Origin: an uncultured Bacilli bacterium
GTDB taxonomy: Bacteria > Bacillota_I > Bacilli_A > RF39 > UBA660
Assembly: GCA_944331835.1 (NCBI GenBank)
Contig: CALVIU010000001.1
Span: 1 to 49,950, forward strand
Length of the DNA: 49,950 nucleotides
Direction: 5' to 3'
Shown here: in pieces, positions 14,580 to 34,600 of the stretch
Layout of the letters: the number at the start of each line of letters is the position of its first letter
Position numbering within the stretch: position 1 is the stretch's first letter
Made by a program: the position numbers and the translations under genes
The notes under the pieces: model-generated
The model's input: the letters and a program-made list of their open reading frames with translations, nothing else
What the model was told of the DNA's origin: nothing
Database searches by the model: none

Positions 14580-14635
14580 ATGTCGAATTTTGACGGACAC
14601 TTTTTCTTGCATTTGTATTTACATTACTTTAGAAT
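14580..14635 (+). promoter_or_regulatory. Conserved motif plus sigmaA-type promoter of sORF module 1
   Basis: ATGTCGAATTTTGACGGAC (14580-14598), then TTGCAT (14607-14612), N17, TAGAAT (14630-14635). The order and spacing are the same as in module 2 at 34281-34336 (motif start to -35 is 27 nt in both). Confidence 0.5.
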
Positions 14636-14641
14636 AAATAA

Positions 14642-14921
14642 CCGTTACCGGAGAGTGTTGTGCTGATGCAACTGAGTAATTTCTTTGCTACTCAAACATT
14701 GGGGGTTTTGGAAAGAAAGGGGCAAAAGATATGAACAAAGAAGAAAATAAAAGTACTCTTTTAGTAATAATAATCTTATTAATTGTAGTAATACTACGTT
14801 TAATATAGAAAAATAGACACTAGCCTTGTTCAGGTATAGTGTCTCAAACCAAAAATTTGCAGGCATTATCCACTAGGGGTAACACTTACATGTATAATAT
14901 AACAAATTTATATGTTTTTTT
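14642..14921 (+). other. Structured sORF-bearing transcript, module 1 (candidate type I toxin-like mRNA)
   Basis: The predicted 5' end is at AACCGTTACC. The 5' segments GTTACC (14644-49), AGTG (14654-57) and GATGC (14665-69) are complementary to the 3' segments GGTAAC (14878-83), CACT (14871-74) and GCATT (14863-67). A perfect 8-bp hairpin AGACACTA/TAGTGTCT (14815-14844) follows the sORF. A terminator hairpin ACATGTA/TATATGT plus T7 lies at 14888-14921. Confidence 0.4.
14731..14808 (+). CDS. 25-aa hydrophobic peptide MNKEENKSTLLVIIILLIVVILRLI (candidate small membrane toxin)
   Basis: Hand-translated; too short for the ORF track. SD AAAGGGG lies 7 nt upstream of the ATG. The peptide has one predicted TM helix. 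It is the paralogue of the sORF at 34436-34516; both start MN. Confidence 0.4.
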   Translation: MNKEENKSTLLVIIILLIVVILRLI

Positions 14922-15013
14922 CAAGTATATTCAATATCGAACTTTGTCGAACAAACTTATATTATACTTTAAAATAAATTTACCTATAGAAATTAAGTAA
15001 TTATATTCCCCTT

Positions 15014-31830: not shown

Positions 31831-33098
31831 TTTTCTTCCCCCTTTCCTTCTAAAACATATATAGTATTAAGTTTTAATTTCTTTGCAACATCAATAACAT
31901 CTTCTCTAGTAACTTTATTTATAAGTTCTTTTCTTTTATCTAAATCTGGTAAATTATCAAATATATTAAATACATAATTATTAAGTATCGAAACATTATT
32001 ATCTTGTGCTAAATCCAAAGACATAACTAAATTTAGTTTAGCATCATTTAACTCATCATCACTAAAATCTCCATTAATCATATCTTTTAAACATTTCTTA
32101 ACTAAACTACTAGCTTTTTTGACATTCTTATCCTCCAAAGAAACATGAATAACTAACAATTTATCATACTTCATATATAAACTACTAATGCTATAGCATA
32201 AACTATTTTCTTCTCTAATTTGTTTATATAATTTACTAGTAAGTCCTCCATTACCAAAAATATAATTAAACACTTGGAATGTTACATGTCTTGCTTCATC
32301 ACTTAAATTACCAACATTATAAATCATAACCATATTGGCTTGAATATTATCTGATTTATCACTTTGTACTATTTCTTTTTTTCTTACACTATTATCAACC
32401 AACAAATCCAATGTCGCAGTATTAATATAACGATGATGAAAATATTTCTTTATTAGACTAACTACTTCATCCATATCTAAATTACCAATAACAAAAATAT
32501 CACAAACACATTCTTTAAATAGAGATTTATAAGTCTTATATAAAGAACTAGGAGTAATTTTATCTACATCTTCTAAAGACCCTAAAACTGAATAACTAGT
32601 TGGACTATCCGGATTCATACTATTAAAAGCATTTCTAACTGAATACTTAAAAGAATTATCCTTAATACTATTAATATCCCTAATAATTCTTTCCTTAACA
32701 ATATTAAATTGTTTTAAATCAAATTCTTCATTTACTACATTAGGTTTTAATAATAATTCAAAAGGAAGTTTAATTACGTCTTCTAAATAATTCTTATCTT
32801 CAATAAAACCCGGATTAATAAAATCAAGTATCATATTACAATTTAAAACATTACCAGTTTTAACAGTAATCGCATAAGCACTAGTTTTATAAAGTTCTTC
32901 AAAACGGACAATCAAATCTCGCCGTAACGGATATTTTTCTGATGACTCCGACAACATATCCATCAAAAATGTATAAGCACATAATTCTTCCTTAACTACC
33001 GGTTTTCGAAACATTATTTCCATATGTGCTGTTTTAAACTTATCCGTCTTTATCGTATGAACATTAAAAGAATTACATTTATACGTTTTATAAATCAT
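31827..33098 (-). CDS. M16 family peptidase-like protein lacking HxxEH (non-catalytic partner type)
   Basis: Size and pairing with the downstream M16 gene fit, and no HxxEH motif is seen. The start is moved to the ATG at 33098 (MIYKTYKC...), which is preceded by GAGGTGGA. Confidence 0.7.
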   Translation of the reverse strand: MIYKTYKCNSFNVHTIKTDKFKTAHMEIMFRKPVVKEELCAYTFLMDMLSESSEKYPLRRDLIVRFEELYKTSAYAITVKTGNVLNCNMILDFINPGFIEDKNYLEDVIKLPFELLLKPNVVNEEFDLKQFNIVKERIIRDINSIKDNSFKYSVRNAFNSMNPDSPTSYSVLGSLEDVDKITPSSLYKTYKSLFKECVCDIFVIGNLDMDEVVSLIKKYFHHRYINTATLDLLVDNSVRKKEIVQSDKSDNIQANMVMIYNVGNLSDEARHVTFQVFNYIFGNGGLTSKLYKQIREENSLCYSISSLYMKYDKLLVIHVSLEDKNVKKASSLVKKCLKDMINGDFSDDELNDAKLNLVMSLDLAQDNNVSILNNYVFNIFDNLPDLDKRKELINKVTREDVIDVAKKLKLNTIYVLEGKGEEN

Positions 33099-34233
33099 TT
33101 TCCACCTCTTCCTTATTATTATCATTTTTTACATATTTATTATACTCATTAACACAATAATCATCAGTCATACCCGCAATATAATCAATTACTATTCTTT
33201 CTTTACTATTATTATTTTTATATTCTTCACTCATATTATATAAATATGATTTTATTATATTTGAATCCCGATTATTATTTTTTATATCTTCCAGATACTT
33301 ATTAAATAAAGTATTAAGTATTATTTCTAACTTTTCTCTTTCTTTCTTTGTATATGCTAATGCATATATATTTTTATAATTAAAATCTTTTAATTCAACT
33401 ATTGCTTTATATACTCCATCACTTAGTTTAATATAATCTTTCCCTAAACTATTTTCTATTACATCCTTAATTATAGTATTTACTATTTCTCTATTACTAC
33501 TTCCTAAGTGTTTTTTTACACTATCTGGAATATCATTAAAACTGACAATATTAAGACGCATAGCATCTTCAATATCTCTTCCCAAATATGCTATTAAATC
33601 ACTAATTCTAACCACACAACCTTCCAAAGTCATTGCTCTTAATTTTTTAATTATACCTCTATCTTTATAACTTAAATTATATTCTTCAAAAAATTCTTCT
33701 TTAGTTTTCTTCCTTGGTACATATTCATTTTGAGGAAGTTCCCCATTATGACACATTATAGCATCAAGTGTTTGTAAAGTAATATCTTTACCCATTCCAT
33801 AATTTTCAATATACATAAGAAGTCTTACACTATGAATATTGTGATTAAAAAATCCTTCACCACAATTAAGACTTATCTTATTAAGTATTTCTTCTCCAAC
33901 ATGCCCGAATGGAGTATGACCTAAATCATGACCGAGTGCACTTGCCTCAATCAAGTCTTCATTTAGAGCAAGTGCCCTTCCTATAGTTCTAGCAATTTTA
34001 CTAACATATTGCACGTGAATCATTCTCTTAGTCAAGTGATCATTACTTTTAAACGAAAATACTTGCGTTTTATCACTATATCTAGTAAATGCAAGTGTAT
34101 ATATAATTCTATCTATATCCCTAAAAAAAGGCGTTCTAAAATCATTACTTACTTTCCGTAAATATATAGCATCATCATCACATGTTGCATACTTACTTAA
34201 ATATTTATTATGATTATGCATATTCCCATCCAT
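33088..34233 (-). CDS. dGTPase-like HD-domain triphosphohydrolase
   Basis: Motifs RTPFFRDIDRIIY, HVQYVS and SALGHDLGHTPFGHVGE. The start is moved to the ATG at 34233 (MDGNMHNH...), which is preceded by GGTGG. The 22 aa further upstream in the track ORF run into the divergent promoter region. Confidence 0.8.
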   Translation of the reverse strand: MDGNMHNHNKYLSKYATCDDDAIYLRKVSNDFRTPFFRDIDRIIYTLAFTRYSDKTQVFSFKSNDHLTKRMIHVQYVSKIARTIGRALALNEDLIEASALGHDLGHTPFGHVGEEILNKISLNCGEGFFNHNIHSVRLLMYIENYGMGKDITLQTLDAIMCHNGELPQNEYVPRKKTKEEFFEEYNLSYKDRGIIKKLRAMTLEGCVVRISDLIAYLGRDIEDAMRLNIVSFNDIPDSVKKHLGSSNREIVNTIIKDVIENSLGKDYIKLSDGVYKAIVELKDFNYKNIYALAYTKKEREKLEIILNTLFNKYLEDIKNNNRDSNIIKSYLYNMSEEYKNNNSKERIVIDYIAGMTDDYCVNEYNKYVKNDNNKEEVENDL

Positions 34234-34280: not shown

Positions 34281-34336
34281 ATGTCGAACTTTGTCGCACT
34301 ATTTTTGTTGCTTTTATACTACTTTAATTCTAGAAT
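34281..34336 (+). promoter_or_regulatory. Conserved motif plus sigmaA-type promoter of sORF module 2
   Basis: ATGTCGAACTTTGTCGCAC (34281-34299), then TTGCTT (34308-13), N17, TAGAAT (34331-36). The layout matches module 1. Confidence 0.5.
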
Positions 34337-34342
34337 ATTTAA

Positions 34343-34600
34343 CTGTTACCCATAGTGGGAGCGTCTACTTTGCTTTGCTGGATTCCAGCTATCAGGGGGA
34401 ACCTTGGGAGTCAGGTTTGAAAGGAAGGTGGAGTCATGAACGATAATGAATTTTATTTAGTAATGATAGTGATTATACTCGGTTTAATAGCTGATATAAA
34501 AGACAAAAGACGCTAACAATAGCGTCGAAACATAGTAGATGCTACCCACCCACTTACATATATAATATATCAAAATACATAAATTTATTCAAGTATTTTT
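34343..34600 (+). other. Structured sORF-bearing transcript, module 2 (candidate type I toxin-like mRNA)
   Basis: The predicted 5' end is at AACTGTTACC. GTGGGAGCGTCTAC (34355-68) pairs with GTAGATGCTACCCAC (34535-49) in a ~14-bp closing helix with one bulge, enclosing the SD and the sORF. Hairpins: GCTGG/CCAGC (34377-89) and GACGCTA/TAGCGTC (34502-26, overlapping the sORF stop). The 3' end is uncertain because only a weak AATAC/GTATT+T hairpin lies at 34574-34600. Confidence 0.4.
34436..34516 (+). CDS. 26-aa hydrophobic peptide MNDNEFYLVMIVIILGLIADIKDKRR (candidate small membrane toxin)
   Basis: Hand-translated; absent from the ORF track. SD AAGGAAGGTGGAG lies upstream. The peptide has one TM helix followed by a charged tail. 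Confidence 0.4.
   Translation: MNDNEFYLVMIVIILGLIADIKDKRR

Follow-up and report, generated by a model that had tools for sequence, protein, structure and literature searches.

Type I toxin-antitoxin systems are well known, but their biological roles are debated. A clear physiological trigger has been assigned to few of them, mainly to the toxins of E. coli that LexA controls. The present study concerns module 2, an intergenic element at positions 34281-34600 of a 49,950-nucleotide stretch of DNA (the window) from an uncultured gut Bacilli bacterium (contig CALVIU010000001.1, assembly GCA_944331835.1). Module 2 is probably one representative of a type I toxin-antitoxin-like cassette, about 330 bp long, that occurs in many copies and is confined to one genus, and in which a messenger RNA (mRNA) for a small membrane peptide would be closed by pairing of its two ends and countered by a convergent antisense RNA. 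The layout is apparently that of a type I system, of an undescribed family. The encoded peptides (23-29 aa) are shorter than BsrG (38 aa) and TxpA (59 aa) of Bacillus subtilis, and they are predicted to be small (<60 aa), hydrophobic and membrane-directed, as type I toxins are.

Among described systems, the geometry of the cassette most closely resembles that of txpA/RatA, bsrG/SR4, bsrE/SR5 and yonT/SR6 of B. subtilis, in which convergent RNAs likewise overlap at their 3' ends (PMC6562991), as is predicted here. In txpA/RatA and bsrG/SR4, the antisense RNA at the 3' end triggers RNase III-dependent decay (PMC6562991). Further common features are a Firmicute host, a small hydrophobic peptide, a Shine-Dalgarno (SD) sequence in a short G+C pairing, and the presence of RNase III, encoded in this genome at C23:1298-1672 (130 bits). 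The cassette nevertheless has no sequence or Rfam similarity to this class, and its predicted antisense RNAs are shorter (about 60-90 nt). Unlike the B. subtilis mRNAs, that of the cassette has a long 5'/3' closing helix, and the 5' half of the antisense RNA has the sequence of the mRNA 5' arm. The cassette loci are chromosomal and intergenic rather than located in prophage or skin elements, and Spo0A boxes are found on the toxin promoter, which is not the case for the B. subtilis class.

Pairing between the 5' and 3' ends of the mRNA is known from hok/Sok (plasmid R1) and aapA1/IsoA1 (Helicobacter pylori), where it keeps the message inert until 3' processing (PMC5416894, PMC6733600). In those systems the antisense RNA is directed at the processed mRNA, at its 5' region or the site of translation initiation, whereas the one predicted for the cassette covers the 3' arm. 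In-silico removal of an arm of the cassette did not open the SD sequence. The hosts also differ, being Proteobacteria and Campylobacterota for hok and aapA1 and a Firmicute for the cassette.

An earlier reading of module 2, made from the letters of the DNA and referred to here as the sequence-only reading, had likened the peptide to Fst/Ldr-type toxins. The likeness holds for the hydrophobic helix and charged tail that are found in Fst of the par locus (RNA I-RNA II, pAD1) and in the Fst/Ldr family (PF13955), but it does not extend to a match with PF13955 or NCBIfam, or to the RNA logic of par. As in par, the two RNAs converge on a shared hairpin and the antisense is about 60-65 nt long. Unlike par, the cassette has neither direct repeats nor antisense pairing to the initiation region, and the shared hairpin has a U-run on the antisense side only. 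Judged by its sequence and RNA logic, the cassette is not a member of the Fst/Ldr family.

Copies were searched for in the assembly by BLAST, motif scans and an nhmmer profile. The 1.25-Mb assembly (28.5% G+C) contains 10 full copies and additional fragments; the full copies are located in C1 (two), C2, C5 (three in tandem), C11 (two), C49 and C52. Modules 1 and 2, which had been proposed to be homologous, align at 74% column identity, with the conserved islands on the functional elements. The count of copies per genome, which had been called for as a check, is thus 10 in this case. BLAST matches were obtained in 18 of 25 genomes of the same genus, several of them multi-copy; 16 genomes taken from other families in the class had none. 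In a stricter scan, 401 genomes from 145 genera of the order were searched with the pattern AACYGTTAYC, 195-225 nt, GGTAAC. Real cassettes were found in this genus only, where sister species of uncultured gut Bacilli hold dozens more copies; the other matches were coding-like and occurred at the rate of the reversed-pattern control. A degenerate pattern scanned against contigs gave mostly chance matches, and among the matches listed the real ones came from metagenome-assembled genomes named "uncultured Bacilli" and from one record of Candidatus Onthocola stercoravium, which holds a copy identical to one of this genome over ~280 bases, to the end of the locus.

The multi-copy distribution bears on the possibility, raised with the sequence-only reading as the case that would undo it, that the region does no more than provide the divergent dGTPase-like gene with a promoter or leader and has no plus-strand transcript. 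The minus strand does carry hexamers (TGGACA-17-TATGAT, 34278-34250) that abut the Spo0A-type boxes of module 2 and may share them. However, the unit is repeated over its full 320 bp at 10 loci, some of them in tandem arrays and with unrelated genes as neighbours, its conserved features are placed downstream of the dGTPase-like gene and directed away from it, and both the coding signature and the excess of G·U pairs described below are plus-strand properties, so that this explanation is exceedingly unlikely. The minus-strand hexamers are the likely promoter of the dGTPase-like gene, and the boxes may serve both divergent promoters. This gene probably starts at the ATG at 34233 rather than at the GTG at 34299.

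Evidence for a structured plus-strand RNA comes from the closing helix. In module 2, GTGGGAGCGTCTAC and GTAGATGCTACCCAC pair over 14 bp with one bulged A, spanning 195 nt, and the helix is present in both the minimum-free-energy and the centroid fold of 34341-34556 (-63.8 kcal/mol, z = -3.77, 0/200 shuffles as good). A fold of the same kind was obtained for module 1 (about 14580-14925). For the family as a whole, 33 distinct copies were aligned from the predicted start to the 3' arm (alignment A2), and a structure of 37 pairs was written by hand from one copy, made up of a two-segment closing helix and the hairpins over the AUG and the stop codon. As controls, the 3' partners were slid by 1-3 columns and 500 column shuffles were made. 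Standard pairs occupied 91.5% of the cells in the 33 copies, compared with 31.7-50.1% with slid partners. Compensatory changes, which the sequence-only reading had proposed to look for among genome-wide copies, were observed: both sides had changed at 18 of the 37 pairs (127 cells), counts that overstate the number of independent events because the copies are related by descent. None of the 500 shuffles matched the observed percentage paired, the both-side changes or the covariation score. RNAalifold on the raw MAFFT alignment recovered the helix for the invariant GUUACC/GGUAAC part only, because of indels.

The arms differ between subfamilies, each fitting its own partner (UAGUGGGAGCGUCUAC/GUAGAUGCUACCCACCACUA, UAGUGGUAGUGCCUGC/GCAGGCAUUAUCCACUA and UAUUGGUGAGGCAUCG/CGAUGCUACCCAAUG). 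In an alignment-free comparison, the variable 5' arm paired with its own 3' arm at a mean of -21.9 kcal/mol, compared with -16.8 kcal/mol for permuted partners, and 0 of 20000 permutations were as low. A further 14 distinct copies from gut metagenomes, which had no part in defining the structure, showed the same helix with new compensating variants. On the plus strand, the closing helix contains 75 G·U but only 16 A·C cells, an excess indicating that it forms in plus-strand RNA and is not an inverted repeat at the level of DNA. Neither this asymmetry nor the slid controls hinge on independence of the copies. Together with the covariation and the energies of the cognate arms, the asymmetry supports the earlier proposal that the closing helix is under selection as an RNA structure.

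The same observations bear on the idea that the inverted repeat represents the ends of a miniature mobile element and that covariation arose from co-evolution with a transposase rather than in RNA. A multi-copy unit with an internal, imperfect inverted repeat of 26-30 bp, present in tandem and at varied sites, would suit such an element. DNA-level repeats would not give rise to the excess of G·U over A·C, however, and homology runs past the arms as far as the boxes and both promoters, which shows that the unit does not end at the arms. In addition, module 2 lies beside the same dGTPase-like gene in three species (amino-acid identity 96% and 86% in the two sister species), indicating that the locus was inherited in place. 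The intact orthologue gave no blastn match in phage or plasmid collections, and a pattern scan of viral contigs was negative as well. Terminal inverted repeats of a mobile element were rejected on the asymmetry, the homology beyond the arms and the synteny, and this origin is considered very unlikely.

The helix of about 14 bp described by the sequence-only reading is present, but it is a truncated form of the family helix, and the deletion responsible had been missed. The family helix begins 5 nt from the predicted 5' end with an invariant GUUACC, extends to GGUAAC, and has 26-30 bp with one or two bulges; it is found at this length in the syntenic orthologue of a sister species (L021) and in nearly all other copies. 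L021 reads CCCACC ACTATGGGTAA CACTTACAT, whereas in module 2 the 11 nt of ACTATGGGTAA are deleted between CCCACC and CACTTACAT. L021 carries ATGGGTAAC at the corresponding place; in module 2 the 3' partner of GUUACCCAU was deleted, so that GUUACCCAU is left partnerless, the first 14 nt are unpaired, and the helix has about half its length. The fold is weaker by 22 kcal/mol (-63.8 compared with -86.0 kcal/mol for L021).

These differences raise the question of whether module 2 alone has decayed and no longer functions as a regulated pair, the family itself being real. The deletion, relative to L021 and all intact copies, removed the terminal 9 bp of the helix and part of the antisense 5' region, and dead copies occur elsewhere: two of the 33 short open reading frames (sORFs) are frameshifted, and an intact peptide ORF was not found in three of the 14 metagenome copies. 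On the other hand, the sORF, SD sequence, both promoters, boxes, terminator and 14-bp helix of module 2 are all intact, and what is left of the helix is enough to close the RNA in both folds. Decay of this copy is therefore regarded as unlikely, and module 2 may be viewed as a naturally truncated allele, usable as a built-in helix mutant.

The sequence-only reading had described a 26-aa sORF, and its pattern of change was examined among the copies. An in-register ORF of 23-29 codons is kept in 31 of the 33 copies, and the start codon is ATG in 32 and GTG in one, with an SD sequence 7-12 nt upstream. Differences between pairs of copies with <25% divergence were distributed over the three codon positions as 112/76/267, i.e. 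59% at the third position. These data support the view that the sORF behaves as a coding sequence. The module 2 peptide, MNDNEFYLVMIVIILGLIADIKDKRR, has a polar N-terminus, a hydrophobic core of ~15 residues and a basic KDKRR tail. Peptides of the module 2 type follow MND(N/K)xF..hydrophobic..(K/E)KRR and those of the module 1 type MNKEENxSTLLVIIILLIVVILRLI, while sister species encode MNE(D/E)xFxQV..hydrophobic..KKDANK and similar forms. No meaningful match was found for six family peptides against Pfam and NCBIfam (E up to 10), and none for a profile of 18 peptides against PDB sequences; by exact look-up, none of 8 peptides was present in a collection of 15 billion proteins.

The toxin-antitoxin candidacy itself rests on a convergent antisense promoter and terminator, both absent from the account given by the sequence-only reading. 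A promoter of the form TTGnnn-17-TATATT with an extended -10 (TGn) was found in 32 of the 33 copies at a constant distance from the 3' arm, within variable surroundings. The hairpin over the stop codon has a U-run on the minus strand only (34508-34499), indicating that it is the terminator of the predicted antisense RNA. Covariation was observed at three of its seven pairs, and its non-Watson-Crick cells, read on the plus strand, include 10 A·C and 4 G·U, which favours the minus strand. The antisense RNA predicted from these signals folds at -20.2 kcal/mol (z = -3.78) and would be complementary along its whole length to the mRNA, over the last ~5 codons, the hairpin, the spacer and the 3' arm. 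Since the two arms of the mRNA are complements of each other, the 5' half of the antisense RNA has nearly the sequence of the mRNA 5' arm. Duplexes between the antisense RNA and the initiation region were no better than shuffles (mean z = +0.44, 0 of 33 copies below -2), and a par-like pairing with that region was dropped.

A side observation concerns the 3' strand of the stop-codon hairpin. RNAalifold paired columns 243-249 and 268-274 of alignment A2 (34520-34526 and 34538-34544), that is, UAGCGUC of this strand with GAUGCUA of the 3' closing arm, with some changes on both sides (CG in 22 copies, UA in 8). Given the likeness of this strand to the mRNA 5' arm, the RNA may pass through a transient alternative fold while it is transcribed.

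The features of module 2 are listed in the table below. All elements that the sequence-only reading had placed in 34281-34600 were recovered on the sequence, in the same order and at the same positions. The TTGCTT-17-TAGAAT-type promoter occupies a fixed place and is conserved in 33/33 copies. The toxin mRNA would probably begin at the AA of TAACTGTTACC, and its 3' end must take in the 3' arm, which stops at 34549. A CU-rich box is found at the place of the candidate anti-SD in all copies of alignment A2; in module 2, GAUUCCA may act as an anti-SD or may instead lie inside a local hairpin, GCUGGAUUCCAGC, depending on whether the minimum-free-energy or the centroid fold is considered. A weak, covarying hairpin lies over the AUG. 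The mRNA is highly structured, as is typical of type I toxins, according to the covariation and the SD/anti-SD pairing in the minimum-free-energy fold, and its translation would be restrained.

Table. Coordinates of the observed and predicted features of module 2 and of the neighbouring gene.
Feature	Position	Strand	Basis or remark
dGTPase-like gene, divergent	33088-34233	-	neighbour of module 2
Upstream motif ATGTCGAACTTTGTCGCAC	34281-34299	+	sequence
Tandem Spo0A-box-like heptamers: TGTCGAA 34282-34288, TGTCGCA 34292-34298	34282-34298	+	sequence
Toxin mRNA promoter, sigma-A-type: TTGCTT, 17-nt spacer, TAGAAT	34308-34313, 34331-34336	+	sequence
AACTGTTACC	34341-34350	+	sequence
Predicted toxin mRNA	34342-34552	+	fold; helix covariation puts both arms in one plus-strand RNA
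GUUACCCAU, invariant 5'-terminal helix strand of the family	34346-34354	+	alignment A2; orphaned in module 2
Closing-helix 5' arm GTGGGAGCGTCTAC	34355-34368	+	sequence, fold, covariation
Candidate anti-SD GAUUCCA, pyrimidine-rich	34381-34387	+	pairs with SD in the minimum-free-energy fold
Shine-Dalgarno region UGGAGUC, core GGAG	34429-34435	+	directly abuts AUG at 34436
sORF, 26 aa, MNDNEFYLVMIVIILGLIADIKDKRR	34436-34516	+	translation
Predicted antisense (antitoxin) RNA, ~59 nt, two hairpins	34499-34557	-	ends placed from promoter and terminator
G+C-rich hairpin GACGCTAACAATAGCGTC over the stop codon	34509-34526		terminator scan, covariation
Closing-helix 3' arm GTAGATGCTACCCAC	34535-34549	+	sequence, fold, covariation
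Convergent antisense promoter: TTGAAT 34592-34587, 17 nt, TGA-TATATT, -10 at 34569-34564	34564-34592	-	promoter scan

The motif that had been noted at -27 from the -35 hexamer is present, and it was here recognised as a pair of tandem Spo0A-type boxes, which the sequence-only reading had not done. The two heptamers are 10 bp apart from start to start, with a 3-bp spacer, and begin 58 and 48 nt upstream of reference base 34340 of the upstream alignment, as they do throughout the group of copies to which module 2 belongs. They fit the Spo0A box consensus TGTCGAA, which occurs in tandem with a 3-bp spacer (PMC2731898). At least two boxes in 10-bp phase were found in 30 of the 33 copies, and at least one perfect TGTCGAA in 26. 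In diverged copies from sister species and metagenomes the upstream distances of the box starts are 72, 62, 52 and 42 nt, and often three perfect boxes end 4 nt before the -35 hexamer. Across the genome TGTCGAA is not enriched (132 found, ~119 expected as estimated from base composition), and a relaxed tandem box pattern occurs 14 times, 8 of them in cassette promoters. The genome encodes a single spo0A gene, detected at C16, where a frame of 279 aa gave the one match to Spo0A_C (128.8 bits), and spoIIGA is also present.

Tandem TGTCGAA boxes with a 3-bp spacer at a sigma-A promoter are likewise known from spoIIG and spoIIE, which are activated, and from abrB and the A2c and A2b promoters of phages phi29/Nf, which are repressed (PMC2731898). 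Unlike the known Spo0A-controlled sigma-A promoters, the core promoter of the cassette has the normal 17-bp spacing. If Spo0A binds there, the position of the boxes would make activation of the toxin promoter somewhat more likely than repression. In tisB, symE and dinQ of E. coli, regulator sites are likewise found on the toxin promoter, with an antitoxin promoter that is apparently constitutive (PMC6562991). The regulator motif of the cassette is that of Spo0A (sporulation) and not of LexA (SOS), and the boxes lie upstream of the -35 hexamer, not over the core promoter. A literature search on the combination of type I toxins with Spo0A brought up no description of a system of this kind.

Tandem or paired boxes were also observed in other contexts. 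At C16, the stretch about 60-110 nt before the start codon of spo0A contains two perfect inverted boxes (TTCGACA), 33 nt apart, an arrangement that would fit autoregulation of the kind known from Bacillus subtilis. At C12:4803-4817 (minus strand), a tandem box pair, TGTCGAACTTTGTCG, is located upstream of a cold-shock protein gene, which is followed by a ribosome hibernation factor-like gene, indicating that the box motif is not exclusive to toxin cassettes. In the window, a third tandem box pair, ATATCGAACTTTGTCGAAC, lies at 14934-14952, just past the antisense promoter of module 1; it is followed by no recognisable -35/-10 or leader and looks like the 5' stub of a lost neighbour cassette, in likeness to the tandem arrays on C5 and in L022. 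At C58:3983-4060, a tandem box pair is joined straight to a cassette 3' arm, GGCATTATCCACTCGGGATAACACTTATG, as a remnant left by recombination or internal deletion. A cassette-like promoter (TGACGATAAATGTCGAC boxes, TTGCTT, TATAAT and a leader starting AAATAACAGTTAC) precedes a longer gene at C19:9292-9370, so that promoter and leader start may form a portable unit. The product of this gene begins MNYYNEIKTKLIDN and presumably resembles the YhcG/DUF1016 nuclease family.

Other variants of the cassette were seen as well. At C53:4906-5092 and C52:5066-5383, a third peptide type, LTKKDFLILSLVMIIFLLLFLLFVVLIEQKSNKFD, with a strong SD sequence, has its 3' region in common with the degenerate copy on C52. 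The ends of contigs C53 and C52 are identical in sequence, as would be expected if the assembly had broken at a repeat. In the 3' arm of all module-1-type copies, TTATCCACT is found (14866-14874 in the window). It fits the DnaA-box consensus TTATCCACA at 8 of 9 positions, which may be coincidence. Searches against Rfam gave no match for the whole window at the gathering threshold, and relaxed searches of modules 1 and 2 gave only chance-level matches.

In the proposed pathway, a sigma-A promoter behind two phased Spo0A boxes would produce a toxin mRNA of about 210-265 nt, whose ends would pair over about 26-30 bp in intact copies and 14 bp in module 2. The closed RNA would enclose the CU-rich anti-SD, the SD sequence, the weak AUG hairpin and a 26-codon ORF for a single-helix membrane peptide. 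By hiding both RNA ends, the closing helix would yield a stable message, which, with the SD and AUG paired, would be poorly translated. From beyond the 3' arm, the strong convergent promoter would direct a ~60-nt antisense RNA that stops at the stop-codon hairpin and is a perfect complement of the final ~60 nt of the mRNA. This RNA would pair with the 3' arm and the hairpin, RNase III would cut the duplex, and the mRNA would decay, on the model of txpA/RatA and bsrG/SR4. Spo0A~P at the boxes would modulate transcription of the toxin and so shift the toxin-to-antitoxin ratio at the onset of sporulation.

Several results weigh against this interpretation. The promoter of the toxin has near-consensus hexamers with 17-bp spacing, and may work unaided by an activator. 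In the Pfam, NCBIfam and PDB searches the peptide could be assigned to no known family of toxins, the copies on which the covariation was counted share descent, and module 2, given its deletion, could be a weakened copy. A terminator scan found no plus-strand intrinsic terminator after the 3' arm. The mean unpaired probability of the SD sequence is only moderately low (0.33, compared with 0.37 overall), and in-silico removal of either arm did not raise SD/AUG accessibility (removal of the 3' arm changed the SD value from 0.33 to 0.24). The proposal that the closing helix governs SD accessibility was dropped because no opening was seen on arm removal; since the thermodynamic test does not support hiding of the SD, protection of the RNA ends is the safer reading of what the helix may do.

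The missing toxin-family match also favours another explanation, in which the product is a harmless small membrane protein, e.g. a sporulation-stage factor, tuned by Spo0A and a cis-antisense RNA, and no toxin-antitoxin pair exists. The toxicity is putative, Spo0A boxes suit a developmental gene, and small sporulation membrane proteins are common in Firmicutes (review PMC10730256). However, ten or more diverged copies in 1.25 Mb, tandem arrays, frequent pseudogenes and patchy presence among sister species are what one expects of type I toxin loci, and would be unusual in a developmental factor with a housekeeping role, and closure of the mRNA combined with a dedicated antisense RNA is the standard restraint of a harmful product. 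A harmless protein is therefore considered improbable, and a type I toxin-antitoxin-like cassette is preferred. Overall, the sequence-only reading was supported in part.

A more specific proposal is put forward tentatively, as possible rather than probable: the toxins may be wired to the sporulation decision, Spo0A~P lifting the toxin mRNA past a constitutive antisense RNA, and the antisense RNA may also act on the closing helix by strand displacement. Having the sequence of the mRNA 5' arm, it would displace that strand from the helix and leave the mRNA open to nucleases at either end. If true, this way for an antitoxin to act has not been described for known systems. If the link to sporulation is correct, the peptide would act at a defined developmental moment, for instance in growth arrest, commitment to sporulation or lysis of the mother cell.

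The cassette thus joins two features that are separate in known systems, the 5'-3' closure of hok/aapA1 and the 3'-overlapping antisense RNA of B. subtilis, and its peptides of 23-29 aa and their RNAs show a gap in what the present libraries of proteins and RNAs cover for uncultured gut Bacilli. As a new family it would be of moderate interest, and of higher interest if the sporulation link holds. Phased Spo0A boxes and about ten copies in a gut spore-former with a minimal genome of 1.25 Mb would offer a testable link between type I toxins and a developmental switch.

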